Positions 2,622-63,426 of a stretch of DNA of 64,000 nt are shown piece by piece. Positions within the stretch are counted from its first letter, which is position 1. Every line of letters begins with the position of its first letter. Below the pieces are notes generated by a model. It made no database searches, had not been told where the DNA came from, and saw nothing but the letters and a program-made list of their open reading frames with translations. The DNA comes from a virus (taxonomy: Duplodnaviria > Caudoviricetes): the IMG/VR virus record IMGVR_UViG_3300027971_000001. The stretch is one strand, 5' to 3'. A program made the translations under genes and the position numbers.

Positions 2622-2969
2622 ATGAGTTCAATTCAACCATTCGTAGATCATGTAGGACGTACAATCATAGGCGAAGTTCTTGGCGAGGAGAACGGAAACC
2701 TAAAGGTAAAAAACCCCGCTATTCTGCTGGTTCAGCCGAATCAAGCCACTGGACAACTGAGCATCCAGACGATTCCCTTGTTTTTCAAGGAATTCATCAG
2801 CCCTGCTCTTCGTGAAACAGTTGGCACCTGGCTTTTCCCAAAGGATAAGCTGGTTTTGACCACTGACGTTCAATTAGAAGAGCGTATTATTGAGCAGTAC
2901 AAGCGTATTTTTACGTCTGCTCCTGTTGCTGATTCTAATCCTGAAGTAGTCAAGCTGTTCGAAGACTAA
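2622..2969 (+). CDS. Small beta-rich hypothetical protein directly upstream of uvsX
   Basis: 115 aa ORF; its stop TAA overlaps the uvsX ATG (TAATG), indicating translational coupling. Confidence 0.8.
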   Translation: MSSIQPFVDHVGRTIIGEVLGEENGNLKVKNPAILLVQPNQATGQLSIQTIPLFFKEFISPALRETVGTWLFPKDKLVLTTDVQLEERIIEQYKRIFTSAPVADSNPEVVKLFED

Positions 2970-4045
2970 TGAGTGATCTGGATAAAATTCTAGGTTGTCT
3001 GGATGATATCAATCCAGAAGCTGCTTTTCTATCAGATAACACTCTAAGCAACGTTGATACTTGGTATGATACTGGTTGTTATGCTCTAAACGCCATTATT
3101 AGCGGAAAAATCCGTGAAGGTGGTGTTCCAAAAGGACGAATCATCGTCTTTACAGGAGAATCACAAACAGGTAAAACACTTCTTATCAATAAAATCTTGG
3201 GTCTTGCTCAAAAACAAGGAATGTATCCTGTGATTTTTGATAGTGAGATGAGTGTTGATGCAGATAGCGGTAAAACCGTAGGACTTGATCCGGAAAAGAC
3301 CAAGTATTGCCCTGTTTATACTGTTGATGAAACCAAAAACCAGATATCTAAATTTTTGGATCAAGTTATTGAGAAAAAAGCTCAAGGCAAATTCATTATC
3401 AGCATAGACAGTCTCGGCAATCTTGCAGGTGCAAAAGAAGTTGCTGACATTGAAAAGGACAAATCTGTTGCAGATATGGGTCTTCGCGCCAAAAGCTTAA
3501 AGAGCATGTTGCGTATTTTGACTTATAAAGCAGCAAAAGCAGGTGTGACTGTTCTTTGCAGTAACCATACATATGCAGATCCTGCCAGCATGTATCCAAG
3601 TTTGGTTAAAAACCAAAGTGGAGGAAGTGGTCCTTTGTATATGAGCAGTGTCATCGTTCAATTGGCTCGCAGAAATGAAAAGCAAGATGATAAAAATGAA
3701 GAAGACAAAATGCTTCCCGAAGCAAAACAATATTCGGGTGTAACTCTTCGTGCCATGACAACCAAGAACAGGTTCTTACCACCTTTTCTGGAAGTTCCAA
3801 TTTATTTGAATTACAGAACAGGATTGGACAAATATAGTGGACTTTTGGAAATGGCAGTAAATCATGGAATTATTATCCAAAACGGACCAACCTATACTAA
3901 AGCAGACGGAACAAAATTAGGTTATGCAAAAAGTTTTAAAAATGATATATCTTTTTGGGAAGAGTATGTTATACCTAATCTCCAGGAGAAATTAAATGTC
4001 GCCTACAAATACGCAGACTCAGATACAGACGCAGCAAAAGAATGA
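2969..4045 (+). CDS. uvsX: RecA-like recombinase UvsX
   Basis: DTGCYALNAIISG, Walker A GESQTGKT, Walker B IISIDSLG, NHTY and SGG motifs. Confidence 0.95.
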   Translation: MSDLDKILGCLDDINPEAAFLSDNTLSNVDTWYDTGCYALNAIISGKIREGGVPKGRIIVFTGESQTGKTLLINKILGLAQKQGMYPVIFDSEMSVDADSGKTVGLDPEKTKYCPVYTVDETKNQISKFLDQVIEKKAQGKFIISIDSLGNLAGAKEVADIEKDKSVADMGLRAKSLKSMLRILTYKAAKAGVTVLCSNHTYADPASMYPSLVKNQSGGSGPLYMSSVIVQLARRNEKQDDKNEEDKMLPEAKQYSGVTLRAMTTKNRFLPPFLEVPIYLNYRTGLDKYSGLLEMAVNHGIIIQNGPTYTKADGTKLGYAKSFKNDISFWEEYVIPNLQEKLNVAYKYADSDTDAAKE

Positions 4046-11702: not shown

Positions 11703-11710
11703 TATAAATA
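11703..11710 (+). promoter_or_regulatory. T4-type late promoter TATAAATA
   Basis: Exact T4 late consensus, 5 nt before ATG 11716. Confidence 0.75.
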
Positions 11711-11715
11711 ATAAT

Positions 11716-11901
11716 ATGATCAAAAACGTACCATTTGTGCAGCCCAAACCTCAAGTAAGTCCTATTTCAGGACAATTGACAAGACCTATTATTGTGGAAC
11801 GTCAAGTAGGCAAAAATGTTATGAAAGAAGCACAATGGATTGATCCTGCTTCTGGAACACTCTTTCTGCGCGGTATTGTGAGTGTAGAAGAGAAAAAATA
11901 A
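11716..11901 (+). CDS. Small hypothetical late protein (61 aa)
   Basis: Perfect TATAAATA at 11703-11710, 5 nt before the ATG. Confidence 0.75.
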   Translation: MIKNVPFVQPKPQVSPISGQLTRPIIVERQVGKNVMKEAQWIDPASGTLFLRGIVSVEEKK

Positions 11902-11910
11902 CCTTTTACC

Positions 11911-13269
11911 GTGAGTCGTGCAAGCATACTTGGAACATTGGGATTATCTGGATTTAACATCCAGGGAACAGTTCTTGTAAGCCGAGGAAGCACAGCCCAG
12001 CCAACATTCAGCGCGGCTCCAGTCACATCAGGTGTTTCTAATTTAAATTTTGACAGAAGCGGTCCTTTAACAAGAATAGCATCAAATGCCAGCACAGGCG
12101 TAGTTACACTTTCAGCAGTACCAAGCCTTACAGATCTTCAGGCAGCTGATTGGACTGATGGAAGTAACATATCAAACTGGGGTACATTGCAATCTTATCT
12201 GAGTGCAGTTGCTTATAGTAATCGAAACATTTCAGCCAGTGCTGTGACCATGCGCCTTTTTGGAACCACAAGGGGATATAGCGTTTCAATGCAAGTACAT
12301 CCCAATGGAAAAATATACATGTTTCCCGCAGATATCACACAAACCACACATGGTTATGTGATTGATCCTGAAGGTGAACGTATCATAACAACATTTTTTT
12401 ACACGAGTGGTGTAACAAGAGCAATGCTGGCACCCAATGGAAAATTCTACATGGGGGGTATATCTACTCGTCTTATTGTTCTGGATCCTAGCACCGATAC
12501 GGTTAATCAAACCATAAACACTTCACCAGTTACTTTCGGTTATCCGACCTTGGCCAGAAATGGTAAATTTTATGAAGCTGGATCTGCAATTATTGGAGTT
12601 TTTGATCCTGCAAATAATACAACCACAACTATTGCAGCACCAGCTTTTAATGCAAGTCTTAATGTTAATGGAAGCCAACTTGCTCCCAACGGAAAAATAT
12701 ACTATGCTCCTTATTTTGGCACAGTGTTTGCAGTAATTGATCCAGAAGCAGGAACAGGTGCAACTTATGGTTTTGCCGGAGGATTTTCATATGCTGGATT
12801 GCCTTCATTTAGCATGGTTTTCGAAGGAATGGTACTTGCTCCTAACGGGAAACTATATTGTATTCCTCATAATGTTCCCAGTACTAGTGGAGCTGTTACA
12901 GCAGGACCAATCGGAATTATAAATCCAGATGATAACACCACCACAACCATAGCAAGTTGGATAGGAAGTGGAACAAGCGGAGTAAATTGTCAAACTGCAT
13001 TTCTTGCTCCGAATGGAAAAATATATACAGCGCCCAATCAAGACACTTTTGTGGTTATTATAGATCCTGAAACAAATACCACTACAAAATTAATTGGAAA
13101 TACATTTGGATTTTCTTCTTTACAATCTCAAGGAGGTGTGATGCATCCGAATGGAAAAGCATTTTTTGTTCCTTATTATACTACAGCAATAGGAGTCATG
13201 TATTTCAATTTAAACAATAATTGGAATATAAATGTTTGTACCAATCCAATGTTTAACAAACAAATTTAA
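11911..13269 (+). CDS. Beta-propeller protein, paralog 1 (putative receptor-binding/fibre tip)
   Basis: Seven xPNGK/ARNGK blade-like repeats, each followed by IDP/LDP; N- and C-terminal motifs shared with paralogs 2 and 3. Confidence 0.75.
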   Translation: MSRASILGTLGLSGFNIQGTVLVSRGSTAQPTFSAAPVTSGVSNLNFDRSGPLTRIASNASTGVVTLSAVPSLTDLQAADWTDGSNISNWGTLQSYLSAVAYSNRNISASAVTMRLFGTTRGYSVSMQVHPNGKIYMFPADITQTTHGYVIDPEGERIITTFFYTSGVTRAMLAPNGKFYMGGISTRLIVLDPSTDTVNQTINTSPVTFGYPTLARNGKFYEAGSAIIGVFDPANNTTTTIAAPAFNASLNVNGSQLAPNGKIYYAPYFGTVFAVIDPEAGTGATYGFAGGFSYAGLPSFSMVFEGMVLAPNGKLYCIPHNVPSTSGAVTAGPIGIINPDDNTTTTIASWIGSGTSGVNCQTAFLAPNGKIYTAPNQDTFVVIIDPETNTTTKLIGNTFGFSSLQSQGGVMHPNGKAFFVPYYTTAIGVMYFNLNNNWNINVCTNPMFNKQI

Positions 13270-13281
13270 TAAATATATTAT

Positions 13282-13656
13282 ATGACAATTTACGTTGATT
13301 GCGGAACATATTACGAAACAGGCGATGCAGTGATTTGCCGCATGCGCAAAGATCAACCTTATTATCCTTTTAGTGGAGGTAGCATTACATGGGAACAATA
13401 TGTAAACCAACAAGTTGCACAAGGATTGGCTCAAGTTGTTCAACTAATCAATGATCCCACTCGTCTGGCCACTTACTGGAATGATGTAATCATCAAACGG
13501 AACGGTCTTCTTGTGGAAAGTGATTGGACACAGCTTCGCGACGTTTCCCTTGGTGATAATCCTGAATGGGTAAGTTATCGTCAGCAATTGCGTGATATTC
13601 CTCAGACATATGCCAGTGATCCTCGTTTGATTGTTTGGCCTGTTAAACCTAGCTAA
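13282..13656 (+). CDS. Tail fibre assembly chaperone (Phage_tail_APC-like)
   Basis: RNGLLVESDWTQLRD...WVSYRQQLRDIPQ...WPVKP is the characteristic signature; AATAAATA 6 nt upstream. Confidence 0.88.
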   Translation: MTIYVDCGTYYETGDAVICRMRKDQPYYPFSGGSITWEQYVNQQVAQGLAQVVQLINDPTRLATYWNDVIIKRNGLLVESDWTQLRDVSLGDNPEWVSYRQQLRDIPQTYASDPRLIVWPVKPS

Positions 13657-13711
13657 ATCATATATAAATTTTGATGTTTTTCGTTAAATAATATTATATT
13701 ATTTTAACGAT

Positions 13712-15064
13712 ATGAGCAACGCATATAATCTAAGTCTTTTAGCATCAAGAAACAATCTGGGAAATGCTGGGGTTGTCTTCATCAGTCAAGGAAATGATAT
13801 TGCTCCATCTTTGGGTCCGCTAAGTGCCGGTGTTTTGAGTTTAAGTGGAATAAACCAGCTTACCAGTCAAATAGGTGTAAACAAATCAACAGGGGTTGTT
13901 ACCATATCCGCAGAACCTCATTTGTGTGAATTGGGTGTGCCAGGATGGGATAAAGGACAGCACATAACACAATGGAGCACATTGCAAAAATATCTGAGTG
14001 CAACAGCCCTAACCAATAGTACTATTCCTGCAAGTGCTGCTTTTGTTGAATATTTCGGAACTGTACCAGGATTTGGTGGGGCTCAAAATTATGAAGGAGG
14101 TACTTTGGCTCCCAACGGAAAAATATATTGTTTTCCAGAAAATGCAACAACCGCCCTACTTATAGATCCTGTAACAAATACTATAACAACATTCGGAAGT
14201 TTTCCGGGAGGATCACTTAGTAATAAATTTCAAGGATCTGTTTTGGCTCCCAACGGAAAAATATATGGAATTCCTTGTGGTAATACTGCAGGAGGAGGTG
14301 GGGCTCAATCTGTGTTTTATTTTATAGATCCGTCCACAACAACAGTTTCAGCTTTTGCAACTGTCGCCAACATTGCAGGTACAAATGCATATCAGGGAGG
14401 AATTCTTCATCCAAATGGAAAAATTTATATGACTCCCGAAGCAGGATCAGTCGTTCATTATATCGATCCACAACTTAATACTGTTGTGGCTTTTGCAACA
14501 ATTTCCTTCAACAATTTTTATGCACTTTCAAAAGCAGCATTGGCTCCTAATGGAAAAATATATTTTGGAATAAACTCCGGAAGTGTGGGACGTATTTTGG
14601 ATCCAAGTACCAACACATTTGGAACATATGCTCCAGTAGGAGGATTTCCCGCAAATCTAGCTTCAAATGGTATTACTCTTGCACCTGATGGAAAATTATA
14701 TCTTACACCGAGCAACTCAATAGCGTATCTTGTGGATCCGGATAATGATTCAGTTACATCCTATGCAACTGGTCCGTCAATAACAGGAAACATAAGCACA
14801 TTCGGAGGAAAGCTTGCTCCGAATGGAAAAATATATTTTACATCTTGGGTGGGTACATATTTTGGAGTTTTGGATCCTGAAAATCTAACAGTCACAAGAT
14901 TGGGAACAGTTGCATCTGTTGCTTATCTTGATATGGTTGTTACCCCTAATGGTAAATTGGTTTTCATACCCGCAGCGGCAACAACAGTAACAGCTTATAA
15001 TCTTCTTTTAAACAATAATTGGAATATGAATATTTGTACTAATCCTTTGTTTAACACAAATTAA
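13712..15064 (+). CDS. Beta-propeller protein, paralog 2
   Basis: Repeated LAPNGKIY/HPNGKIY/APDGKLY blades; ends NNNWNMNICTNPLFN. Confidence 0.75.
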   Translation: MSNAYNLSLLASRNNLGNAGVVFISQGNDIAPSLGPLSAGVLSLSGINQLTSQIGVNKSTGVVTISAEPHLCELGVPGWDKGQHITQWSTLQKYLSATALTNSTIPASAAFVEYFGTVPGFGGAQNYEGGTLAPNGKIYCFPENATTALLIDPVTNTITTFGSFPGGSLSNKFQGSVLAPNGKIYGIPCGNTAGGGGAQSVFYFIDPSTTTVSAFATVANIAGTNAYQGGILHPNGKIYMTPEAGSVVHYIDPQLNTVVAFATISFNNFYALSKAALAPNGKIYFGINSGSVGRILDPSTNTFGTYAPVGGFPANLASNGITLAPDGKLYLTPSNSIAYLVDPDNDSVTSYATGPSITGNISTFGGKLAPNGKIYFTSWVGTYFGVLDPENLTVTRLGTVASVAYLDMVVTPNGKLVFIPAAATTVTAYNLLLNNNWNMNICTNPLFNTN

Positions 15065-15072
15065 ATAAAATC

Positions 15073-16389
15073 ATGAGTAATGCAACAAATCTGGCACTTT
15101 TGGGACTGAGCAGCTTCGGCAATGCCGGAAATGTTTTGACCAGCACCGGTGAAACCACTGCCCCAGCATTCAGTGCAAGCAGTGTGGGTGTACGAGAAAT
15201 CCGTGTTGTAAATCAGGTTCTTAGTCGATTGGGCGTTAATAGAAGCACAGGAAATGTTAGTGTCAGCGCTCTTCCTGATATCAGTGAAATTGCTGTTCCA
15301 AGCTGGCTGAACGGTGGTCACATCAGTGATTGGAGCACGTTGCAATATTATCTGAGTGCAGTTGCTGCTACGAATACAAGTCCGGCCAGCGCTGGTTTTG
15401 TTGAATATCTATCCGTTGTTCAAGAGTATAACAAAGGAATGGTTCTAGCACCTAACGGAAAAATGTACACAGCCCCTCATGGTGCAGGAGTAGGAACGAC
15501 ATATGGTTTGATAATTGATCCTTCCAGCAATACAATTTCTTCATATATAGCCACAATAGTAGCGTTGGGTAGTCTAACTACTGATGCATTTTATGGTTCA
15601 GTTTTAGCACCAAATGGAAAAATTTATTTTGTTCCAGACAGGGCAACTGTCGGTGCATTAGTCGATCCTTCAACTAATACAGTTTCAACTTTTGGAACTT
15701 TGCCAGCATTTGGTGCCGGAACAAATGCTTTTGGTTATGCAATTTCTGCTCCAAATGGAAAAATATATCTTATTCCTGAAAATTCAACTATAGGAAGAAC
15801 AATTGATCCAAACACAAATACATTTGGAACTTATCCAAGCAGCAATTGGTCAGGAGGTTTAAGTTATCATAGTACAGCAGCTCTTGCTCCTAATGGAAGA
15901 ATATATGTGTTTCCTAACATAAGTACACTTGTTGCTAAAATTGATCCAAGTAATGATTCAACCACAGTAATTTTATCAAATGTTAAAAACATTGCAGGAT
16001 CTGTTCTTGCTCCAAATGGAAATATATATTTGTTTCCAAATACTTCTTCTCAAAAAATTATAAAATTCGATCCTAATTCAGAAACAGTTTCAACTATTGC
16101 AGCAACAAATCCTAGTGGAGGTCCTGCATGTTTGCTTCCAAATGGAAAAATATTTTATGGAGGATACTCCAATACGTTAGCGGCAATTTTCGATCCATCC
16201 AATGAAACCATACAAACAATTTGTACAATAGGAGGTGTTCCTCCAACTTATGCTGGTTGGAATGTAGCACCAAATGGAAAAGTGTATGGATTGCCCTTTA
16301 GTACCAGTAATATTATATGTATTAATTTTTTAAACAAAAATAATTGGAATCTGAATGTTGCAACAAATCCAATGTTCAACAAAAACTGA
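15073..16389 (+). CDS. Beta-propeller protein, paralog 3
   Basis: Repeated LAPNGK blades; ends NNWNLNVATNPMFN; ATTAAATA 5 nt upstream. Confidence 0.75.
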   Translation: MSNATNLALLGLSSFGNAGNVLTSTGETTAPAFSASSVGVREIRVVNQVLSRLGVNRSTGNVSVSALPDISEIAVPSWLNGGHISDWSTLQYYLSAVAATNTSPASAGFVEYLSVVQEYNKGMVLAPNGKMYTAPHGAGVGTTYGLIIDPSSNTISSYIATIVALGSLTTDAFYGSVLAPNGKIYFVPDRATVGALVDPSTNTVSTFGTLPAFGAGTNAFGYAISAPNGKIYLIPENSTIGRTIDPNTNTFGTYPSSNWSGGLSYHSTAALAPNGRIYVFPNISTLVAKIDPSNDSTTVILSNVKNIAGSVLAPNGNIYLFPNTSSQKIIKFDPNSETVSTIAATNPSGGPACLLPNGKIFYGGYSNTLAAIFDPSNETIQTICTIGGVPPTYAGWNVAPNGKVYGLPFSTSNIICINFLNKNNWNLNVATNPMFNKN

Positions 16390-16518
16390 TTATTTTTTCT
16401 TTTTCCTGTCCCAACGAATCTGATCGTAATTTTCCCAAAACTTTTTGCTAATATTTCTTGGTTTATCCCCTTTGCCGTTTTGAACCGTGTTTAGTTTAGC
16501 GCTTTTTTCCTTACTCAT
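16390..16518 (-). CDS. Small basic protein (42 aa) with GKGDKPR motif; not in the ORF track
   Basis: Manual translation MSKEKSAKLNTVQNGKGDKPRNISKKFWENYDQIRWDRKKKK; start overlaps the end of the zinc-ribbon gene and the ORF fills the gap exactly. Confidence 0.7.
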   Translation of the reverse strand: MSKEKSAKLNTVQNGKGDKPRNISKKFWENYDQIRWDRKKKK

Positions 16519-16729
16519 AATCATCTAAATTTAAAAGATCCTCTTCCTCTGTCAACATAGCATCTGCTTTTTTGCTAATTGCCACAATACTGTCATCAAA
16601 TCGATAATTTCCACAAAAAACGCAAAAAGGACTTTCTTTAGCATTTACATTATCACAAGCTTCACATAATTTATAATAAAAAGGATGCTTCTTCACATCC
16701 TGAATCCACCGCTTTTGTTTGTTATTCAC
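16511..16729 (-). CDS. Zinc-ribbon protein (72 aa)
   Basis: CEAC-x9-CVFC; TATAAATA on the minus strand at 16748-16741. Confidence 0.75.
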   Translation of the reverse strand: MNNKQKRWIQDVKKHPFYYKLCEACDNVNAKESPFCVFCGNYRFDDSIVAISKKADAMLTEEEDLLNLDDYE

Positions 16730-16747
16730 GTTCTGTTAAATATTTAT

Positions 16748-16945
16748 ATGGGGAAAGATGATAAAATAGAGGCTGTTGTTACGCAAAAAATCACTGCTGA
16801 TTTTATTCTGAAAATATATGATAATTACAAAAAAGAAAAAAATGTCAAAAAGAAAAAAGAAATGTATGAAAAATTGCAATTATTATCAAAAAACCTTAAT
16901 CAATACTTAGTAGTGCCTAAAGATTATGATAAATATTACAACTAA
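16748..16945 (+). CDS. Hypothetical basic protein (65 aa)
   Basis: Preferred start ATG 16748 (MGKDDK), 5 nt after GTTAAATA. Confidence 0.65.
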   Translation: MGKDDKIEAVVTQKITADFILKIYDNYKKEKNVKKKKEMYEKLQLLSKNLNQYLVVPKDYDKYYN

Positions 16946-18418: not shown

Positions 18419-18900
18419 AAAAAATAGCATGTTTGATGATTATTGCCGGAATATTATATAATATTATTCAGCAAACCAAAGAAAAAGCCATAATCAATCC
18501 AGTTGATAATGTGATTTGTTCTGGAATGACTAAAATGGCTGATGATTTTGTAAAGAAATTGGTTGTTGAAAAGACTGTAAAGGTTCGATTAACAACATAT
18601 TGGGCAAAAGGTGGAGAAACTGATAAGGATAGCGCAAAAAAGCATAGCTATACAGGAGCCACATTAAAAGAAGGGGTGAGTGTTGCAGTCGATCCTCGTC
18701 TAATCCCCTTCTTTAAGCGTTTATACATACCAAATTTAGGGCTTAGAGTGGCTCATGATACAGGAACAGCAGTTAAGGATAAAAAGGCAAGTAAGGGTAA
18801 ATTGCCTGTTATAGACGTATTTTTTGAAAAAAAGAAGGATGCCATGGAATTTGCATACAATGGACCTAAAATAGTCACAGTTAGCATTTATAAATACTAA
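18415..18900 (+). CDS. 3D-domain (MltA-like) protein with N-terminal signal anchor
   Basis: VRLTTYW, VAVDPRLIPF, AHDTGTAVK and VIDVFF supply the three Asp; hydrophobic N-terminus IACLMIIAGILY. Confidence 0.85.
   Translation: MKKIACLMIIAGILYNIIQQTKEKAIINPVDNVICSGMTKMADDFVKKLVVEKTVKVRLTTYWAKGGETDKDSAKKHSYTGATLKEGVSVAVDPRLIPFFKRLYIPNLGLRVAHDTGTAVKDKKASKGKLPVIDVFFEKKKDAMEFAYNGPKIVTVSIYKY
18889..18896 (+). promoter_or_regulatory. T4-type late promoter TATAAATA
   Basis: Exact consensus, 5 nt before GTG 18902. Confidence 0.7.
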
Positions 18901-19423: not shown

Positions 19424-19630
19424 TTTCTTTTTCTTTTTCTTAACAGGCAATTGAAAAACTATTTGAGCACTGCTTGTATTAAAACTATCGCCTTTGAATC
19501 CAGAAGGATGTGTGGCTGTTTTACCCCAATCAATATTTTTTCCATTATATGTTCCAGGAACTCTTGATTGAGGCGCAATGCTAAAATCTTCTGATAGCTT
19601 TTTAACAATACTATCAAAATTCTTTGTCAT
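19373..19630 (-). CDS. Hypothetical protein (85 aa)
   Basis: ATGA overlap with the tail-collar gene; N-terminus MTKNFDSIVKKLSE. Confidence 0.6.
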   Translation of the reverse strand: MTKNFDSIVKKLSEDFSIAPQSRVPGTYNGKNIDWGKTATHPSGFKGDSFNTSSAQIVFQLPVKKKKKKSLNVRKKRVMANRVGR

Positions 19631-20781
19631 GATGTGGCTTTGATCAGTTTGCGAACAACGGCGCTGGGCTGAATGGTATTGTGAGGTGTTGATGTTCCTG
19701 AACCAACAGTGCCTGTTGCATCAACAGCACCTTGAGAATATGTATAAGAATAATCTCCATTTGCATTTTGAATGGTCAGACCTCCTACAAATCCTGTTCC
19801 GTTTGGATTAAGAGAACCTGGTTCACGAAATTGAGCAGTAACATCAAATTCACATTTACCTTCTTGTTTGGTAAGAGTATGATTTTCTTCACCTCCTACG
19901 CTACCAACAGCATTGTTAATAGTTGCAGAACCTGTTCCACCCGCACCAATGGTTGTTCTGCGACGCAAATCAGGAAGATTAAAGGTTGTGCTGCCGTCTC
20001 CAGATCCCCAAGTCGTACCCAGAACATTGAACAAATCGACATATGTTGTTCGGGAAACTGCTGTACCATCACATTCCAGATAAGTGGCAGGAGGTGATCC
20101 TGCTCCTGCCCAATCTATAAGAGTTCCTATCGGATTGGTGGTAACAAGACCTGCCAAAAGAACTGCCAAATCTGTTGTGGTAAGATCCTGAACTTGACCG
20201 CTAGTATTCAATCGTCCTTTAATTGTGTTTGCTGGTGCGGCGACTAACATTGAATTGCTAACGCTATTACTATTAACAATCATTGCTTGATTACCATCAT
20301 AAGTCAGACTGTTACCCAATTTTGTTTTCAAAACTGTGTTGCTTCCTATACGCTCAAGACCAGCACCTATAGAAAGATTCGACAATTTTGTTGCAAGCAA
20401 TCCATTATCAGCCACCCTGACAACGTTTGCCACATTAATAAGAGTATTGTTATCTATAGTGAATTGGCTTCCAAAAGGAGCAAAGGCACTGACTTTGGCA
20501 AAATTTGTGCCTGTGAGCATATATGTCAGATTGGATACTGTATCAAAAACAAAATCACCACTGGCAGGAGCAAGATTGCTGCTGATGTTTGTGTTGTTTC
20601 CACCAAATGTTGCAAATCCAAGATTTTTGGTTCCTACTGGAACTCCACCATCAGATCCTGTTCCTATATAAAGACGACTGCTATCTGTACAATAGCCCGG
20701 TTCTCCTGGTTCTAATGTGATATTTTTTCGTTCAGTTTCCGTTCCTTGACGGAATATGATCTTTTTGATTTCAGCAGCCAT
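19627..20781 (-). CDS. Tail-collar-domain fibre protein with Mtd/hyaluronidase-type N-terminal domain
   Basis: IIFRQGT...LEPGEPGYCTDSSRLYIG; PIGTLIDWAG...YLECDG...LFNVLG...FNLPDLR; HNTIQP. Confidence 0.88.
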   Translation of the reverse strand: MAAEIKKIIFRQGTETERKNITLEPGEPGYCTDSSRLYIGTGSDGGVPVGTKNLGFATFGGNNTNISSNLAPASGDFVFDTVSNLTYMLTGTNFAKVSAFAPFGSQFTIDNNTLINVANVVRVADNGLLATKLSNLSIGAGLERIGSNTVLKTKLGNSLTYDGNQAMIVNSNSVSNSMLVAAPANTIKGRLNTSGQVQDLTTTDLAVLLAGLVTTNPIGTLIDWAGAGSPPATYLECDGTAVSRTTYVDLFNVLGTTWGSGDGSTTFNLPDLRRRTTIGAGGTGSATINNAVGSVGGEENHTLTKQEGKCEFDVTAQFREPGSLNPNGTGFVGGLTIQNANGDYSYTYSQGAVDATGTVGSGTSTPHNTIQPSAVVRKLIKATS

Positions 20782-21113: not shown

Positions 21114-21616
21114 TGATGAATCTAACATTTAGCGATACAGAAAAGCCAGCCGATCTGGAAAAGTTCCAAAAAATTACATATCCGACTTTCTTTTTCGGTT
21201 TTGCCATAAGAACCATGTATGATCAGAAAAGATTAAAAATTAAAAAAGAATATAACCCCAATTATATTGTTCACAAATATGGCAACAAAGCAGATGAAAT
21301 CATGTTTCTTTATGGAATGATTGCTCCTGTATCGAATGATGTGATGCCTTATATACTGCCATTACGGGCCAATCCTAACGTGAATCATGAGCAATATGAA
21401 GCAGTACTAAGACCTTTGGAAGTAGAATGCAGTGATTGTTATCTATTCTTAGCCAAGAATCTTTATCCTATCAATTCATTTTATACCCATAGATTCTTTA
21501 CAAAATCAAATTTTAAAAATATAAACAACTATTCAGAATTGCTTGATAGGGATCCAGAACTTCCGTTGCATCACACCATATCCCCGTTCCACCTGTTTTT
21601 ATTGACTAACTATTAA
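21113..21616 (+). CDS. Hypothetical protein
   Basis: Preferred start ATG 21113 (MMNLTF) behind the promoter above. Confidence 0.75.
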   Translation: MMNLTFSDTEKPADLEKFQKITYPTFFFGFAIRTMYDQKRLKIKKEYNPNYIVHKYGNKADEIMFLYGMIAPVSNDVMPYILPLRANPNVNHEQYEAVLRPLEVECSDCYLFLAKNLYPINSFYTHRFFTKSNFKNINNYSELLDRDPELPLHHTISPFHLFLLTNY

Positions 21617-23937
21617 CCACCAACAATCGGATCATTTGGTGGATTGCTGTCCTTGATGTTATAGGCATTGTTCTGCGGTGCAGCCACAACCCTGTCCGTA
21701 TTATTGCAAGCTTGAGCCACGTTACGAACATTCTTATTTTCTGGAAGCAGATTAAGAGGTATATTTTTAAATAAATGACTGTGACTATATGTAAACAAGC
21801 AATTTTCATCTGAAATATTGTTACAAGGAGTTTTACTCCAAACAATACCCCAACCATTACAAATACTTGCTCCAGGTTGCACATAACCAATAATTTTAGC
21901 ATCAATCGTATTAGTTTGACCATACACAAAACTCTTTTCAGTTTCCTGAATTTCTACAGGAGCAGTGATATGGTTGACTGTGAGTTCTCCTTCAATATGG
22001 GCACCTCCTCCTACTACTAAATTGCGACTAACACCCAAACTAGAATCTACCATTACCTGTTCATAATTACGTTGACGCAAAACCAGAATGTCACTGGTTA
22101 TAACTGTGCGGTTACCTCCATCAATATTCAATTCATATTGAGCACCTATATTCACTTGTTGTCCGGCCATGGTGGTTATGGTTCCACTCATTTCTATAGG
22201 TCCTAGGGTTTTTACGCTAATCCCTCCTGCACCCACTTGTAATGTATAACGATTACATGCATTAACTGTATAATTTCCACCAGGAAGATCATCAACATGT
22301 ACAGGTTCAATCAAAGGACTGGATTTTTGATTTTCAAATACGCCCAATTCACCCACTTGAACTTTATAATTATATATTTTTCCTTCTGTGTCGATACGAA
22401 TTGAACCAAAATCATTCATGACTTGACCAATCATATCAAATTTGTGTTTGGGTATTTCTGTAACCAAACTACCCCCAGTACCCAAACTTTCTTCAATTTT
22501 ACCCAATTCGACTATTTTTTCTTTATAAAGCTGTTCGAGTTTCTTTTTTTCTGGATTTTCCTCCCATTTACCATCCATGCTGCTTGGACTTAATTTTTGT
22601 CCTTTACAAACAGGACATTGATTAGGAGCAGGGAATGCAATAAGTTGACCATCTTGTTGTTTTCCTTTTGGATCAACTGTTTGATATTGATCTACACCAT
22701 TACTTCTGAATGTTACAACGGGAATAACTACTTGATTAAATTTGTTATTAACTGCGTAATATTTTCTATCTTTTGAACAAACAGGACAAGGTCCAGGGTT
22801 TCCTTTTTGTTTTTGATTGGTAGAACTTATCCTATTTGGATCACCGTCTTTTTTCTTGGTACGATCAATTTCAAACAATTGTTTAAGATCTGCTATAGGA
22901 TCCATCTGAGTCTTCCATTGTTGCTGATGTTGAGGATCCTGATTTCCTATTTTAAAATAATAATTACCTTTGACCACGATATCTAAATCACCCCCGACGT
23001 AAAGACTATTATTACCTTTTACAGTTGTGAATTTGTCGGCCAGAACCAATTGTTGATCATTTTTTACAGATAATCTACTTGTTGTTGCATTATTAAATTC
23101 CAAAAATGATCCTGAATAGTGTGTAAATTTTAAAACCTCTTTCAAATCTGTGTTTACAAATTCAATTGTTCCGCCTTTTTGAGACATGACCATTTTGTTT
23201 CTGTAAGTTTCAGCATCACTTTGCTGGACTTTCAATTCTGAATTATTTTTGTCCAGATTTTCATAAGCACCCGGATAATCTTCTGCCACTCCATAATCAT
23301 CCTGATATATTCCTTGCCAAGCTGCTTGACCAAAACTTACAGCCCAATAAACAGGACGCATGGGATTTCCATCATAAAAGAATACCCAAACATGTGCTCC
23401 CACATTAGGAACACTGAATAAACCTTTAGCCCTGTTACTGTAACAGCTGGGAACATATCCGTAAGAATTTGGATTTACGTGGGCAACATTATTGGCTGGT
23501 GCAGAATTGAATGCATCGCTTAATTTTACCGCTTTTCTTTCCAATACATTTCCTGGTTTTTCACCAATACCATCTGTATTTTGACTGAATTCTGTTGTTT
23601 GAAAATCCTTTTGAGGTTTGCAAGTATCAATAAAGCTACTGTCGCTTATCGAACCAAATTTTTCTGTTGCATTATATCTTCCGCTTGCTGCTCCTCCAAA
23701 CAAAGGCATGGCACAGTCCGACCAAGGAAGAATCTTTTTAAGATCGTCCAAAATATCATTTAAACTGCTGTTAAGATTTTGACCTATGAAATTAAATTCT
23801 TTATCTACTTTTACTTCATTCCATTTATTGTAAACAGTGGAAGTAACGTGAGGAACAAATATCTTGAGTCTTCCTCTTTGTTCTGGGTCATTGTTTTGTA
23901 CAACTATACCTAAATATTGACCATCATATCTTTTCAT
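21613..23937 (-). CDS. gp5: Baseplate central spike, gp5/VgrG-like, lacking a lysozyme domain
   Basis: OB-fold GIVVQNNDPEQRGRLKIFVP...VPNVGAHVWVFF.DGN; HYSGSFLE and V-x-G beta-helix repeats; C-terminal HSH. Confidence 0.85.
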   Translation of the reverse strand: MKRYDGQYLGIVVQNNDPEQRGRLKIFVPHVTSTVYNKWNEVKVDKEFNFIGQNLNSSLNDILDDLKKILPWSDCAMPLFGGAASGRYNATEKFGSISDSSFIDTCKPQKDFQTTEFSQNTDGIGEKPGNVLERKAVKLSDAFNSAPANNVAHVNPNSYGYVPSCYSNRAKGLFSVPNVGAHVWVFFYDGNPMRPVYWAVSFGQAAWQGIYQDDYGVAEDYPGAYENLDKNNSELKVQQSDAETYRNKMVMSQKGGTIEFVNTDLKEVLKFTHYSGSFLEFNNATTSRLSVKNDQQLVLADKFTTVKGNNSLYVGGDLDIVVKGNYYFKIGNQDPQHQQQWKTQMDPIADLKQLFEIDRTKKKDGDPNRISSTNQKQKGNPGPCPVCSKDRKYYAVNNKFNQVVIPVVTFRSNGVDQYQTVDPKGKQQDGQLIAFPAPNQCPVCKGQKLSPSSMDGKWEENPEKKKLEQLYKEKIVELGKIEESLGTGGSLVTEIPKHKFDMIGQVMNDFGSIRIDTEGKIYNYKVQVGELGVFENQKSSPLIEPVHVDDLPGGNYTVNACNRYTLQVGAGGISVKTLGPIEMSGTITTMAGQQVNIGAQYELNIDGGNRTVITSDILVLRQRNYEQVMVDSSLGVSRNLVVGGGAHIEGELTVNHITAPVEIQETEKSFVYGQTNTIDAKIIGYVQPGASICNGWGIVWSKTPCNNISDENCLFTYSHSHLFKNIPLNLLPENKNVRNVAQACNNTDRVVAAPQNNAYNIKDSNPPNDPIVGG

Positions 23938-30787: not shown

Positions 30788-30795
30788 TATTTATA
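30788..30795 (-). promoter_or_regulatory. T4-type late promoter TATAAATA (gp21)
   Basis: 9 nt before ATG 30778. Confidence 0.75.
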
Positions 30796-32940: not shown

Positions 32941-32948
32941 TATTTATA
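32941..32948 (-). promoter_or_regulatory. T4-type late promoter TATAAATA
   Basis: 5 nt before ATG 32935. Confidence 0.75.
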
Positions 32949-43605: not shown

Positions 43606-46600
43606 TTAATTACCCGAACTTAGCAGTCCTAATCCTAATGATAATTGATAATTTATAAGATTATCTGCTATATTATTTGTATCAAACCAATCAGAATATG
43701 TGCTGATTGTTTGAGAAACTGTTGTTTTTTCACTATCCCAATCAATTAAATTATTATAAAATAAATTATTATTACCTTCATTATATTCAAAAACATCATA
43801 ATAACGTGAAACTTCAATTCCTCCGGTAACATCATCACCCAGAACAAGTGGCCATCCCCATGAAGTATTCACATCACTAAGATGAACAACCTGTGTTGAA
43901 CCGGATAAAAATCCATTTTGGGAAACACCATAATTTGTCAATATGCCATCAGAATAAACTTCACCGAATTTTTCATATAAAACAACTTTACCAGATGTAG
44001 GAACAGTTGAAGTGCTCCAGCTTAATTGTTTTCCAAGATTTTTTCCATAGTTAGGATTGGAAATGGTTTGTTTTTTGTCATAATTTGAATCAAAAAGATT
44101 TGGAGAACCTCTGAAGTAAGAAAGTTTCGTTCCAAGCAAATTAACTAATCTTTGCATATCTGGAGGAAATGGAAAATTATAATTTTGTAAATCCACACCT
44201 ATGAGTGATTCCATGCTTTGTAATGCTTCTAGTTCATTTGCATCCAAATCTGCATTATTTGAAACAAAGTTTGCTATTTTTTCATAGATTCTTTTACCCA
44301 AAGAATTTATAGCACTGTTTTTATTACCAACTATGGGCCCTAAAAATTGATCGAAAAGAACATTTTTGTTTAAAAGAGATTCTTGAAGCACGTATGATTT
44401 GATATTTCCTATAGCATCAAAATTTTCATTTATTTTAGCTAAACCATATCCACCACTAACAGGGTAAATGTTAAACGTGTTGCTTTGACCAGTAACTGTT
44501 CTTGTTCTTGTATTATAATAATATTTGTTTATCCACCGCATTCCTGTCCAATCACCATAAGCCCTTAAATTAGAAGGATCGACATCATCAGTGTTAATTC
44601 TGTTTACATCCACTGTGTTTAAAACTGTAAAAGAATTCAAAGGATACAAATACACACGTCGATCAAAATTATGAACAACCCACAGAATATTTTCAGTATC
44701 ACAAGCAATTGCATTTATACTTTGATATTCTGTTGTAAGATTTGTTCCACTTCCAACAGAAAATGTAGTGGTATCAGTTCCTGTTTTTACACGTAAAATA
44801 TCTTGTTTATTATAAGAAGCATATATATTCTGATCTTTATCAACAGCTAATGGTCCCAAACCGCTATAACCACTTAAAGGATAATTTTCCGAAAGATTAC
44901 CGGAATTGGATTCATATTTATAAAGAAAATCATTACGGTTGGTAATACTTGAATTGTTATTCAAATATGTCATCACAGTCATATAGAGATTATTATCTCG
45001 ATCTATTAACAATTGTTGCGGGCTGAATAATGTTGGGTATTCTTTTGCCCCTAAAAAGTTTCCATTTGGATCGTATTTGATTAGATATCCTTTTAAAGGA
45101 TTTGAATATGCTACCCAAATATTACTATCTAAATCTGTTTCAATGCATGATGGTAAAATAGTAGATTCATCAGCATAAATGCCACTCAAAGGACCGAAAC
45201 CGTAATTTAAAAATGATTCTATGGTAATTCCAGAAAATGCATCTATAGGTTCTCCACTAAATGAATGTAAAATTGAAAAATCAACATTAGGATATGTTGG
45301 ATAAGCTTCAGCATCAATATAACCTGTATCCCTTTGAATTCTTAAGCAAGAACCAGCTGTATATAATGTTACCCAAGCATTTGCCTGTCCGTCTAATGCG
45401 ATAGAAGAAGGTGTTGCACCTGAAAGAGATCCTTGGAAATTTTGATATATGACATTTCCATCTGGGTAAATTCTGGGTGCATTAGATAGATCTATATCAA
45501 AAATAATCTGCCCATTTTTCTTTAATTTTAAGATTCTATCCCGATCAGAATCTGCAAACCAAACAGCATCATCTTCAGAAGGACTTACTGCTATTGCAAA
45601 AGGATTTTTGAGGATTCCTGCAAAAACTGTAGGAGACGATTTTGTACCTGTTAATTGAAGAGAAATAGTTTCCTTACATGCATCATATTCCCTGAATTTA
45701 TTATATCTATAAATATTGGATGCAATATCTGCATTTGATGTTATTGAAATAGAATAAGAATCCAAACCTTGTCCCAACCAAGCATAAGGTGAATCTTTGG
45801 CAAAATATGCAGGATCATAAATTTTTACAGATGCAGTTAATGCCACATTTTCAACCGCATAAGGACTGTTCAAATAACCGGCATAAAATCCACCTGTTCG
45901 ATTTATATTTTTTATATTATTATTTTTGTAAAAATGTATTCCATCAATTACTTTTTGGGAACATACTGAAATTAAATCACATGTTAAATCAAAATAATCT
46001 GTGGATCTGTTAAAATTTAAAAGAGGGTATTGTTTGGTAGTATAATTTTGATTGTCTTTTAACTTAATGAAAAATGAAATTGGGTAATTTTGCCATTTTA
46101 TTTTATTAATATAAAATGATTCATCTGTATAGCCTTCTCCGTCAATTCCATTTGATGTAATGCTTAATGTTTGTGCTGGATTATATCTGATTTTAACTGG
46201 TGTTACGAGTGATGAATAATTTATATAAGGAAGTTTTGAAAAATTTTCTGTATAATTTGAATTTGGAATTTCATTTCTGGAAGGAAATAATGAGAGATCC
46301 AATGAGGCATAAAGAAAAATAGGCGTTTCAGATGTTAGATTTTTAGGATATTGATCAACATAGTAAATGGTTGTTGTTCCACTTGTTCCTGCCAACATCG
46401 ATCCTTCATATGGATATGATGATTCAACTATTTGATTGTTGGATATATAAACATAGATTGGATCAGCAGTTGTTACAGCTGAACTTAAGATGCCAAATCG
46501 GTTTCCAACTTTTTCAACAAAAAAGAAATAAGATTGTAAATGTGCCCATGGATCTTTTACATAATTTTCAAGTTGAAGATAATCCGATTTGCTTCCGCTT

Positions 46601-47052
46601 GCATAAAAATTAATTGTATATCCTGTGGCAGAGACGGTGGGAAGTGATTGCCAAGAATTATATCGTACTATTTCAATAGGATCAGAAACCTGTCCACTGT
46701 TATATGAAGCTATTTTTTCATCATTCAAATAATTAGAATGAATAAAGTCACCTACATAATTAACCGCAGTTACTTGAAAGGTTCGACATGCTTGAACTGT
46801 GTTTCCTGCACTAGTATATCCATAAAATGTGACATCATATACACCGGGCCATGTATAAGAGTGATTTGTACTTAAACTTGTGGAAATTGTCCCGTCCCCA
46901 AAATTCCAAAGACCCTTTTGATCGCTTAAGGAAAGATTATTTGAAGATAGCGATGCAACAAAAGTAAATGGGGTGACATCAAGAGTATAGGTGCTTAATG
47001 ACTCCAAACCTGTGAAGTTTGTTACACTTATGTTTATATAGGTGCATGTCAT
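43606..47052 (-). CDS. Baseplate wedge-associated protein (gp7 position) with PKD domain and beta-propeller
   Basis: WNFGDGTIS...HSYTWPGVYDVTF (PKD); repeated IALDGQANAWV / IETDLDSNIWV / LAVDKDQNIY blades; follows gp6. Confidence 0.7.
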   Translation of the reverse strand: MTCTYINISVTNFTGLESLSTYTLDVTPFTFVASLSSNNLSLSDQKGLWNFGDGTISTSLSTNHSYTWPGVYDVTFYGYTSAGNTVQACRTFQVTAVNYVGDFIHSNYLNDEKIASYNSGQVSDPIEIVRYNSWQSLPTVSATGYTINFYASGSKSDYLQLENYVKDPWAHLQSYFFFVEKVGNRFGILSSAVTTADPIYVYISNNQIVESSYPYEGSMLAGTSGTTTIYYVDQYPKNLTSETPIFLYASLDLSLFPSRNEIPNSNYTENFSKLPYINYSSLVTPVKIRYNPAQTLSITSNGIDGEGYTDESFYINKIKWQNYPISFFIKLKDNQNYTTKQYPLLNFNRSTDYFDLTCDLISVCSQKVIDGIHFYKNNNIKNINRTGGFYAGYLNSPYAVENVALTASVKIYDPAYFAKDSPYAWLGQGLDSYSISITSNADIASNIYRYNKFREYDACKETISLQLTGTKSSPTVFAGILKNPFAIAVSPSEDDAVWFADSDRDRILKLKKNGQIIFDIDLSNAPRIYPDGNVIYQNFQGSLSGATPSSIALDGQANAWVTLYTAGSCLRIQRDTGYIDAEAYPTYPNVDFSILHSFSGEPIDAFSGITIESFLNYGFGPLSGIYADESTILPSCIETDLDSNIWVAYSNPLKGYLIKYDPNGNFLGAKEYPTLFSPQQLLIDRDNNLYMTVMTYLNNNSSITNRNDFLYKYESNSGNLSENYPLSGYSGLGPLAVDKDQNIYASYNKQDILRVKTGTDTTTFSVGSGTNLTTEYQSINAIACDTENILWVVHNFDRRVYLYPLNSFTVLNTVDVNRINTDDVDPSNLRAYGDWTGMRWINKYYYNTRTRTVTGQSNTFNIYPVSGGYGLAKINENFDAIGNIKSYVLQESLLNKNVLFDQFLGPIVGNKNSAINSLGKRIYEKIANFVSNNADLDANELEALQSMESLIGVDLQNYNFPFPPDMQRLVNLLGTKLSYFRGSPNLFDSNYDKKQTISNPNYGKNLGKQLSWSTSTVPTSGKVVLYEKFGEVYSDGILTNYGVSQNGFLSGSTQVVHLSDVNTSWGWPLVLGDDVTGGIEVSRYYDVFEYNEGNNNLFYNNLIDWDSEKTTVSQTISTYSDWFDTNNIADNLINYQLSLGLGLLSSGN

Positions 47053-63418: not shown

Positions 63419-63426
63419 TATTTATA
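63419..63426 (-). promoter_or_regulatory. T4-type late promoter TATAAATA (gp18)
   Basis: 6 nt before ATG 63412. Confidence 0.75.

Follow-up and report, generated by a model that had tools for sequence, protein, structure and literature searches.

What does an uncultured freshwater T4-like phage do with three tandem propeller-protein genes and a single tail-fibre chaperone gene? In the 64,000-nt stretch of DNA analysed here (the window), the cassette lies on the + strand and contains the open reading frames proposed by the first-pass annotation: propeller protein 1 (452 aa, GTG start; 11911-13269), a 124-aa chaperone (13282-13656), propeller protein 2 (450 aa; 13712-15064) and propeller protein 3 (438 aa; 15073-16389). 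No further propeller-gene copies were found in the window. The co-oriented gene string opens with a 61-aa ORF of unassigned function (11716-11901, + strand), which is kept in the relative L003 and had no match in a PHROG search. Five nt before its ATG is TATAAATA (11703-11710, + strand), a T4-type late-promoter-like motif. This motif also occurs 5-11 nt before the start of the sheath gene (motif at 63419-63426) and of other structural genes; its count over the whole window (13 vs 8.4 expected) is by itself not significant. The cassette sits in a + strand block with replication and lysis genes, outside the main tail module. It had been described as far from the other tail genes and opposite to them in strand. 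The strand is indeed opposite, but the distance was overstated: a tail-collar/fibre-like gene (19627-20781, - strand) is found 3.2 kb downstream of the cassette, and a gp5-like hub gene 5.2 kb downstream.

Each paralogue consists of an N-terminal adaptor of ~105 aa, a seven-bladed beta-propeller and a conserved tail of 15-17 aa, and the three proteins can be aligned over their full length (38-41% identity). All three carry W(G/S)TLQxYLSA near residues 90-100, have seven blades of the form xPNG(K/R/N) or xPDGK that recur every ~45 aa, and end in NNWNxNxxTNP(M/L)FN. In protein 1, the adaptor (N1) reaches to ~12245 and the core covers ~12246-13212, followed by the conserved C-tail. In protein 2, the adaptor (N2) covers 13712-~14050 and includes a neck helix (residues 88-104), while the propeller spans residues 109-432 (14036-15007; from an AF2 model and its fold matches) and the C-tail 15008-15064. 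Protein 3 has its adaptor (N3) at 15073-~15405, its core at ~15406-16327 and its C-tail from ~16330. Two 12-mers mark the core boundaries, both on the + strand. TATCTGAGTGCA, the YLSA 12-mer, has three exact matches in the window (0.01 expected by chance), at 12196-12207 and 13991-14002, where it forms part of the left joint blocks of copies 1 and 2, and at 15349-15360 in copy 3. AATAATTGGAAT, the NNWN 12-mer, also has three (0.18 expected), starting at 13216 in copy 1 and covering 15014-15025 (the right joint block of copy 2) and 16339-16350 (copy 3).

Beyond these 12-mers, the DNA at the core boundaries is not near-identical as had been claimed; the surrounding blocks extend over 45 nt at 69-82% and 70 nt at 71-73% identity. 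Similarly, the reported pattern of conserved ends and divergent cores holds among the paralogues for the last 21 aa (62-67%), but the N part contrasts only weakly with the core (39-51% aa and 50-59% nt identity, vs 35-41% aa and 48-53% nt). Nor is there a common docking scaffold. N1, N2 and N3 are 38-51% identical to one another and 84-100% identical to their own orthologues, making them three distinct adaptor types, each tied to its own array position.

That the cores are swapped at the conserved blocks, as the first-pass annotation suggested, is strongly supported by the mosaicism of related phages, which clearly do not carry fixed orthologous copies. In relatives L003-L010, the flanks are 88-98% identical at the nucleotide level, and similarity to the window vanishes from just past the YLSA block to just before NNWN. 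Identity drops to ~50% over 14040-15000 and 15420-16320, and in L007 also over 12245-13255. The copy 2 core is replaced between ~14049-14139 and 15003-15034, with identity returning 4-11 nt upstream of the NNWN 12-mer; in copy 3, it returns at 16327-16334. A metagenomic check (run X4) gave the same picture, as contigs matching the conserved parts enter unlike sequence at 14132/14137, 14994 and 16314. The copy 1 core belongs to a single type in eight of nine relatives (84-97% aa identity), while L007 replaces it, with identity stopping at 12245 and returning at 13255. Copy 1 appears to be the stable head, and copies 2 and 3 the fast-changing ones.

The same core type can also turn up at a different array position or on a different adaptor type, with identity as high as 98%. 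The core type of copy 3 is found at position 2 of L003, on an N2-type adaptor (85% nt, 78% aa), and the position-1 core of L007 matches the position-2 core of L008 at 88%. Across the wider family, cores are less than 50% identical in 126 of the 150 pairs whose adaptors are at least 85% identical, and in 47 pairs cores at least 70% identical (several at 96-98%) sit on adaptors less than 60% identical. The 74 family members form 12 adaptor clusters vs 32 core clusters, and 11 of the 15 multi-member core clusters occur on at least two adaptor types. These comparisons show that the propeller domain is replaced as a unit in the phage population: one adaptor type carries many unrelated cores, and a given core type occurs on several adaptor types and array positions. 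The swapped unit coincides with the predicted propeller domain (residues 109-432). It is joined on the left between the neck helix and the first propeller strand, and on the right at the NNWN block; in recent exchanges, the switch point falls between YLSA and the following PASA.

The relatives are all metagenomic contigs, short-read assemblies in which linkage past read length depends on assembly. The mosaic pattern could therefore be an assembly artefact, with the conserved adaptors (340 nt at 95-100% identity) letting assemblers jump between co-occurring strains, or the cores could have diverged fast by point mutation under positive selection. We consider this pair of explanations close to refuted. 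Strain switching by an assembler cannot create an adaptor-core junction that is absent from the reads, and adaptor-type-specific sequence lies within 30-60 nt of the joint. The paralogues share no exact repeat longer than ~12-27 nt, identical arrangements come from independent samples, assemblies and assemblers (L001/L002, L063/L064), and the window's own N2-core2 junction is also present in L006 at 98.4% identity, all of which makes an artefact unlikely. Divergence, in turn, cannot account for cores with 96-98% identity whose adaptors share 38-52%, nor for the copy 3 core at position 2 of L003.

Two dedicated diversification systems were also considered and rejected. A diversity-generating retroelement target does not fit, as 11800-16500 contains no long near-identical repeat (the longest being the 45-70 nt blocks at 69-82%) and the variation consists of whole unrelated domains rather than A-directed point changes. 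An invertible-segment switch (Mu Gin / P1 Cin type, or a shufflon) was discarded because the genes are all complete and co-oriented, and the sole inverted repeats are imperfect and 16-21 nt long. UvsX recombination, put forward by the first-pass annotation, would be a candidate route for the swaps. Co-infecting relatives can exchange cores via long orthologous flanks, whereas paralogous positions must rely on short imperfect homology, with only ~12 nt of exact homology between them.

The swapped domain itself is a seven-bladed beta-propeller, as indicated by the seven repeats in each protein, the AF2 model of copy 2 and its fold matches. The model has a pLDDT of 80-95 over residues 109-432, with ~28 strands there and a helix at 88-104. 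Over residues 1-73 the pLDDT is below 50, and on its own as a single chain the adaptor is predicted to lack structure. A profile search in the PDB returned NHL, Kelch and PQQ propellers, and among viral structures the best match is a Hokovirus fibre protein with collagen repeats. The same fold is seen in the bacterial propellers Lp49 (3bws), YncE (3vgz) and the YVTN S-layer protein (1l0q), and in virginiamycin B lyase (Vgb; 2z2n, 2qc5). The best solved match is Vgb 2z2n, which aligns with model residues 109-432 over 291 of 293 residues (Z 28.8, rmsd 2.5 A; Foldseek E 1e-15). Membership in the Vgb enzyme family was rejected on sequence grounds, as none of the three proteins matches Pfam Vgb_lyase and identity to Vgb is 13-16%. 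The phage family further differs from Vgb in its added adaptor, neck and C-tail. In an alignment of 67 homologues, no His, Glu, Arg or Lys is invariant or at least 90% conserved; the conserved columns are blade-repeat residues only (P, N, G, Y, D).

The chaperone gene between copies 1 and 2 is Phage_tail_APC-like (PF16778), as had been noted; its Pfam match has an E-value of 2.8e-16 and scores 59.5 bits against a cut-off of 26.6. It also matches the PHROG tail fibre assembly family phrog_4912 (E 1e-15), is 78-100% identical in ten related loci, and keeps the C-terminal motif SDWTQ...YRQxLRDIPQ...VWP. We take P2 gpG, Mu U and lambda Tfa to be chaperones of this Phage_tail_APC type. The position directly after a putative fibre-head gene is the usual arrangement for such genes. 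Here, however, one chaperone is encoded alongside three (or six) heads with unrelated cores, and a propeller would be an unusual client fold for the class.

Do these proteins then belong to the virion? The short forms, including all three window genes and their adaptor, match no tail-protein family in PHROG, Pfam or PDB. Long-form paralogues of ~650 aa share residues 40-450 and add an N-extension, which matches the PHROG tail fiber protein family phrog_38058 (E 1e-9); in L001, the same N-extension bears a non-propeller head with its own chaperone. Two homologues (P0092 and P0097) begin with BppU_N, a baseplate protein domain, and the structural module of the cultured cyanophage Cr-LKS4 encodes a 1130-aa protein whose C-terminus is the homologous propeller. 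We infer receptor binding and a virion location from context: the chaperone, the long-form N-extension, the BppU_N fusions, the late-promoter-like motif and the lack of conserved catalytic residues.

The cassette could instead encode soluble proteins that are not part of the virion. These might be enzymes that act on some host metabolite or envelope polymer, or they might bind host proteins, for example defence factors; an arms race would have diversified them, with domain exchange supplying new specificities. The resemblance to Vgb would fit this, as would the name 'streptogramin lyase' given to several homologues by JGI, the missing tail-family matches of the short forms, and the neighbourhood: replication, sugar-nucleotide and wall-hydrolase genes here, glycosyltransferases and an AAA ATPase in other lineages. 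We nevertheless think it unlikely, given that catalytic-type residues are not conserved among the homologues, that every array has a tail-fibre assembly chaperone embedded in it, and that long forms and some homologues carry tail-fibre-like or BppU_N parts. An N-terminus that is poorly modelled as a single chain and followed by a neck helix is also typical of docking or oligomerising proteins.

We favour the view that the cassette probably encodes three exchangeable-head adhesins of the virion. The N-terminal adaptor, specific to the array position and ending in the neck helix that carries WSTLQxYLSA, would anchor the protein to the tail, the baseplate or another fibre. The ~325-aa propeller would be the ligand-binding head, binding host surface glycans or proteins, and the Tfa-like chaperone may aid its folding or assembly, with the invariant C-tail NNWNxNxxTNPxFN as a candidate handle. 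The phage would be retargeted as its heads are swapped through homologous recombination with co-infecting relatives or, less often, among the tandem paralogues. Some observations sit uneasily with adhesins, namely the missing tail-family matches of the short forms and the adaptor, the location outside the main tail module and an enzyme as the closest solved fold.

Instead of being receptor-binding proteins that trigger infection, the propellers might be Hoc- or fibritin-like decorations on the virion's head, neck or whiskers, which raise encounter rates by binding environmental or cell-surface glycans. This would suit a phage whose large tail-fibre and baseplate module (32-49 kb) and tail-collar-type gene both lie apart from the cassette, and C-terminal module swapping is described for T4-type fibritin (PMC3797505). 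We regard decoration as quite improbable, since the chaperone family and the domains that relatives carry (BppU_N and tail-fibre) favour the tail over the head, and nothing sets decoration apart from a tail location.

If the propellers are adhesins, their logic is closest to that of T-even gp38, and the cassette may be a new form of modular adhesin exchange. The distal tail-fibre locus of T-even phages is described as encoding a modular adhesin, which attaches through its N-terminal domain and owes its specificity to a C-terminal one (Trojet et al., 2011; PMC3157838). Its variable parts are framed by short conserved motifs, among them a small one at the extreme C-terminus, and recombination at these joints swaps specificity (PMC3157838; Tetart, Desplats and Krisch, 1998, J Mol Biol 282:543, cited therein). 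The cassette shares with gp38 the T4 superfamily, the modular plan and the use of conserved motifs as joints, with swaps found among close relatives. However, gp38 has a core of glycine-rich motifs with hypervariable loops, whereas here a whole seven-bladed propeller is swapped as a unit. The putative adhesins are also three (or six) tandem paralogues with position-specific adaptors, lie outside the tail-fibre operon and have no sequence similarity to gp38.

Propellers have been reported in phage virions. Gp45 of Staphylococcus phage phi11 is attached to the baseplate and, like our proteins, continues from an N-terminal part (a stem) into a beta-propeller, the presumed site of sugar binding; the same account mentions PRD1 P2 alongside it, and places the seven-bladed C-terminal propeller of PhiKZ gp131 (PDB 4GBF) at the baseplate periphery, with its function given as unconfirmed (PMC4901313). 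Gp45 differs in its five blades, triple-helical stem and C-terminal tower domains and has no detectable sequence relation to our family, and that account describes neither cassette exchange nor a paralogue array for phi11. 4GBF was absent among the fold matches listed for our model. The arrays themselves resemble those of phages with several receptor-binding proteins. In CBA120 (tailspikes) and Klebsiella phages (depolymerase sets), receptor-binding protein genes lie side by side, with conserved N-terminal docking parts and horizontally exchanged distal domains. Those heads are mostly beta-helix depolymerases with known virion positions, whereas ours are propellers encoded in threes, and their virion location is inferred.

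In abundant uncultured freshwater T4-like phages, host range depends on proteins nobody can yet name, and this family is a clearly delimited candidate: an adaptor, a plug-in head and a constant tail. Natural recombinants map the joints to within ~10 residues, with at least 32 head types on 12 adaptor types. Such joints could template domain swapping in laboratory phages, expressed heads could serve as probes to fish out hosts, and head turnover in lake time series could read out phage-host arms races.

The number of genes per array is also striking. Complete arrays (W, L003, L005, L009, L001, L012 and L063, representing about three independent lineages only) always hold three propeller genes, or six, as three long and three short forms. 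Conceivably, the functional unit is a triplet, in which the paralogues co-assemble via adaptors and neck helices into a heterotrimeric stalk bearing three different propellers. We consider this very doubtful. It would nonetheless explain both the arrays of three and why the three adaptor types stay distinct across lineages. Such a heteromeric fibre with mixed heads would be unusual: a combinatorial, tri-specific adhesin, in which a single core swap alters one third of the specificity.

The window derives from an uncultured T4-like myovirus of ~33% G+C, and almost all public sequencing runs containing the stretch are freshwater metagenomes. It encodes a gp23-type capsid protein, a family B polymerase, UvsX/RecA and a gp41-type helicase, as well as a tail sheath, a gp5-like hub and a baseplate wedge protein. 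Four co-oriented genes occupy 11911-16389 on the plus strand: propeller copy 1 (11911-13269, 452 aa, GTG start), a chaperone gene (13282-13656, 124 aa), copy 2 (13712-15064, 450 aa) and copy 3 (15073-16389, 438 aa). The gene between copies 1 and 2, first annotated as Phage_tail_APC-like, clearly matches both that Pfam family (E 2.8e-16) and the PHROG tail fibre assembly family (E 1e-15). The cassette had also been described as far from the tail genes and opposite to them in strand. The strand is indeed opposite, but the cassette is not distant from every tail gene, since a tail-collar/fibre-type gene (19627-20781, minus strand, 384 aa, PHROG tail-collar/fibre matches) and the gp5-like gene (21613-23937, opposite strand to the cassette) are both near. 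The former is the closest tail-type gene, and its orthologue in the related locus L003 carries the Pfam domains Collar and Mtd_N, the latter being known from the N-terminus of the protein targeted by the Bordetella phage DGR. Further away, a tail-module protein of ~1147-1148 aa (43606-47052, minus strand) contains PKD domains, together with a stretch whose weak resemblance to Vgb_lyase stays below threshold; a profile search found no relation between it and the cassette propellers.

The three propeller proteins can be aligned end to end at 38-41% identity and share the motifs originally reported for them: W(G/S)TLQxYLSA near residue 95, seven xPNGK-type repeats spaced by ~45 residues and the terminal NNWNxNxxTNP(M/L)FN. 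Each of the two boundary 12-mers is found in the window exactly three times, with one site in each propeller gene, which is far above chance; together with the motifs common to all copies, this shows that the observation is real. The description of conserved ends around divergent cores is accurate among the paralogues for the last 21 residues (62-67% identical), the only clearly better conserved part, but the N-terminal 100 columns barely exceed the core (39-51% vs 35-41% in amino acids, 50-59% vs 48-53% in DNA). Similarly, DNA at the core boundaries is identical at the 12-mers but not beyond them; the conserved DNA around them extends over 45 nt at 69-82% and 70 nt at 71-73%, with no exact repeat between paralogues longer than ~12-27 nt.

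The exchange of cores becomes visible when relatives are compared. A chaperone search in IMG/VR and homologue look-ups gathered ten close loci and several more distant ones. The flanks of the close relatives are 88-98% identical to the window in nucleotides, and identity remains high across copy 1, the chaperone gene and the adaptor of copy 2 (the ~105-aa N-terminal part). It drops to ~50%, the level of alignment noise, from 14049-14139 to 15003-15034, is back at 84-98% from the last part of copy 2 through the 8-nt spacer and the copy 3 adaptor until 15393-15405, and drops a second time in copy 3 before recovering at 16327-16334. The copy 1 core has likewise been replaced in L007 (limits 12245 and 13255). 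For L003 and L009, it is the copy 1 adaptor that has diverged (window 11940-12240, 51-73% nt), while its core is 83-95% identical; the left joint, at the YLSA block, therefore works both ways, and adaptors are exchangeable too. In a module-by-module matrix, each array position has its own conserved adaptor type (identities in the closest set of 95-100% for the first, 87-97% for the second and 84-95% for the third), and the cores separate into many unrelated types. These types also change position: position 2 of L003 holds the copy 3 core type of the window (85% nt, 78% aa), the position 1 core of L007 resembles the position 2 core of L008 (88%), and the position 2 core of L004 resembles those at position 3 in L003 and position 1 in L001 (71-79%). 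In one independent sample (sequencing run X4), contigs matching conserved parts continue into unlike sequence at 14132/14137, 14994 and 16314; this mapping drew on low-depth contigs only, and uncovered parts have no evidential value in it.

We extended the comparison to 74 short-form proteins (~450 aa, as in the window). Of the 150 pairs whose adaptors share 85% identity or more, 126 had cores less than 50% identical, and 47 pairs combined cores at least 70% identical with adaptors below 60%; in the extreme pairs, cores 96-98% identical sit on adaptors only 38-52% identical. Clustering gave 12 adaptor types and 32 core types, with 16 core types among the 20 proteins carrying the second-position adaptor type and only 3 among the 13 carrying the first. 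At least two adaptor types occur under 11/15 multi-member core clusters. In recent exchanges, the left switch lies between YLSA and the following PASA, and the right switch at or after NNWN. The mosaicism expected from the first-pass annotation, with core breakpoints in the conserved blocks, was therefore found: identity collapses bounded by the YLSA and NNWN joints, and cores on varied adaptors. At the level of sequence comparison, the swapping of cores is confirmed and its joints are mapped.

Such a mosaic could in principle be an artefact of metagenome assembly, or reflect point-mutational divergence of the cores, but we consider this very improbable. Strain switching by an assembler within the conserved 340-nt adaptors is conceivable, yet it could not invent an adaptor-core junction. 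Adaptor-type-specific sequence lies 30-60 nt or less from the joint, and the paralogues share no exact repeat above ~12-27 nt. The same arrangements also come from independent assemblies (L001 and L002; L063 and L064), and the window's own junction between the second adaptor and its core is present in L006 at 98.4% identity. Near-identical cores on different adaptors are beyond the reach of point mutation.

Core swapping by UvsX recombination between homologous flanks had been proposed from the window alone. Co-infecting relatives would share an orthologous adaptor on the left and, on the right, the C-terminal tail together with the adaptor of the following gene; these hundreds of bases at 90-100% identity should easily suffice for UvsX-type recombination by the phage, whose UvsX gene lies at 2969-4045. 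Transfer of a core to a different position or onto a different adaptor type would require crossing-over in the short, imperfect paralogue blocks. Singer et al. reportedly found in 1982 that efficient T4 recombination requires ~50 bp of homology. Cross-position moves would therefore be expected only seldom, with selection spreading those that occur. A requirement that chimeras fold would be enough on its own to gather surviving joints at the domain boundary; thus, their clustering is no proof of a recombination hot spot. The Leu codon of YLSA is CTG in 20 of 25 genes against a background of 12%, and third-position conservation in this block across nine adaptor lineages (0.67-1.0) is slightly above that of neighbouring codons, while the NNWN-block codons are simply the common ones. 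This codon uniformity of the 12-mers may be a modest signal of selection on DNA, but does not prove a recombination site. The anatomy of the cassette rules out both a DGR as the source of variation and an invertible-segment switch.

The exchanged segment (in copy 2, approximately residues 106-434) has the same extent as the propeller domain of the structural model and takes in the first strand, which closes the ring. AlphaFold2 modelling of copy 2 with 67 homologues gave pLDDT <50 for residues 1-73, a helix at residues 88-104 that contains YLSA, and a propeller over residues 109-432 (pLDDT ~80-95), followed by a short C-terminal tail. Exhaustive structural comparison gave virginiamycin B lyase as the top match (2z2n, Z 28.8, rmsd 2.5 Å over 291 residues, model residues 109-432), followed by the bacterial seven-bladed propellers Lp49, YncE and the YVTN S-layer propeller. 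The best match among predicted viral structures is a Hokovirus collagen-repeat protein (E 1e-29), and very long phage proteins come next. Only blade-repeat residues (P, N, G, Y, D) are invariant or nearly so in the 67-sequence alignment, which contains no conserved His, Glu, Arg or Lys; an active site common to the propellers hence seems unlikely, and the variable surfaces would be the functional part. The adaptor has no PDB match by sequence and no Pfam match, and its family is tiny (43 representatives among 1.8 billion proteins, nearly all on propellers). Assignments to T4_gp9_10_N (0.86) and Phage_fiber_rpt (0.84) were rejected, with protein-atlas scores under the counting level and no confirmation by Pfam; adaptor segments also gave weak profile matches to surface proteins with aRib repeats (P0138, P0140), which seem to reflect no more than similar short motifs. 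The first 65-70 adaptor residues are shared by two metagenomic proteins (P0132 and P0137): one has 250 aa and a C-terminus that is not a propeller, the other is a propeller built from a different repeat (LLPDGRVF) and lacking the YLSA neck. The extreme N-terminus may therefore form a docking module in its own right.

It is plausible that the propeller proteins are virion adhesins, and we infer that this is probably their role, most likely as accessory tail or baseplate fibres. Every array contains a tail-fibre assembly chaperone, and TATAAATA, the T4 late-promoter consensus, precedes the propeller gene string as it does the sheath and other structural genes. Long-form paralogues of ~650 aa share residues 40-450 and add an N-extension of ~240-270 aa that matches a PHROG tail-fibre family (E 1e-9). 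The same extension (55% identity) carries an unrelated, non-propeller head in a 456-aa protein of L001 (6964-8331), whose gene is followed by its own Phage_tail_APC chaperone. Some homologues open with a BppU_N baseplate domain, and in the cultured cyanophage Cr-LKS4 a homologous propeller ends a 1130-aa protein in a structural gene block (its neighbour genes gave no Pfam matches). The N-terminus, which lacks structure when modelled as a single chain and leads into a neck helix, resembles docking or oligomerising stalks, no catalytic residues are conserved among the 67 homologues, and extreme modular turnover is the pattern of host-recognition proteins. Against adhesins, the window's three proteins and the adaptor lack tail-family matches in PHROG, PDB and Pfam, the cassette lies outside the tail module, and the adaptor family is small, with its 43 representatives. 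Weighing both sides, we consider a non-structural function unlikely, and a decoration of the head or neck somewhat less likely still. A complex prediction for the chaperone and copy 2 residues 76-450 (score 0.19, mark 0.32) is neutral on binding. Nucleotide searches of cultured phages gave no match, and protein searches only two Cylindrospermopsis phages, through the propeller part alone.

Complete arrays contain either three propeller genes (the window, 11911-16389; L001, 8739-12600; L003, L005 and L009) or three long and three short ones (L012, 1921-12296; L063, 7948-18280), a regularity resting on approximately three independent lineages. The chaperone gene comes after gene 1 in the window clade, after gene 3 in L001, and after the second long gene in L012 and L063. 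Across lineages, the three adaptor types remain separate. The threes and distinct adaptors would agree with a heterotrimeric stalk bearing three unlike heads, an arrangement we regard as quite improbable.

The evolutionary logic of the cassette is that of the T-even distal tail-fibre/gp38 locus, where an N-terminal attachment domain and a specificity domain are joined at conserved motifs that serve as swap joints (PMC3157838 and a 1998 paper cited there). Propeller-bearing receptor-binding proteins are known but few, namely the five-bladed phi11 Gp45, PRD1 P2 and PhiKZ gp131C (seven blades, function unconfirmed) (PMC4901313). Unlike in these systems, an entire seven-bladed propeller is the exchange unit, the C-terminal tail is constant, adaptors are position-specific and genes form tandem arrays, in a family limited to uncultured freshwater phages.

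In the window, TATAAATA is found just 5-11 nt ahead of a start codon at 11703-11710 and 18889-18896, and on the minus strand at 16741-16748, 30788-30795, 32941-32948 and 63419-63426. The genes behind it include the sheath, two structural genes, a SleB-like hydrolase and the ORF opening the propeller operon. Should these sites act as promoters, their transcripts would be nearly leaderless; alternatively, the motif may belong to the translation start region. A lake metatranscriptome (X24) yielded two short contigs, too little to claim transcription and conceivably DNA carry-over, which match perfectly at 13445-13616, in the chaperone gene, and at 16406-16541, just downstream of copy 3.
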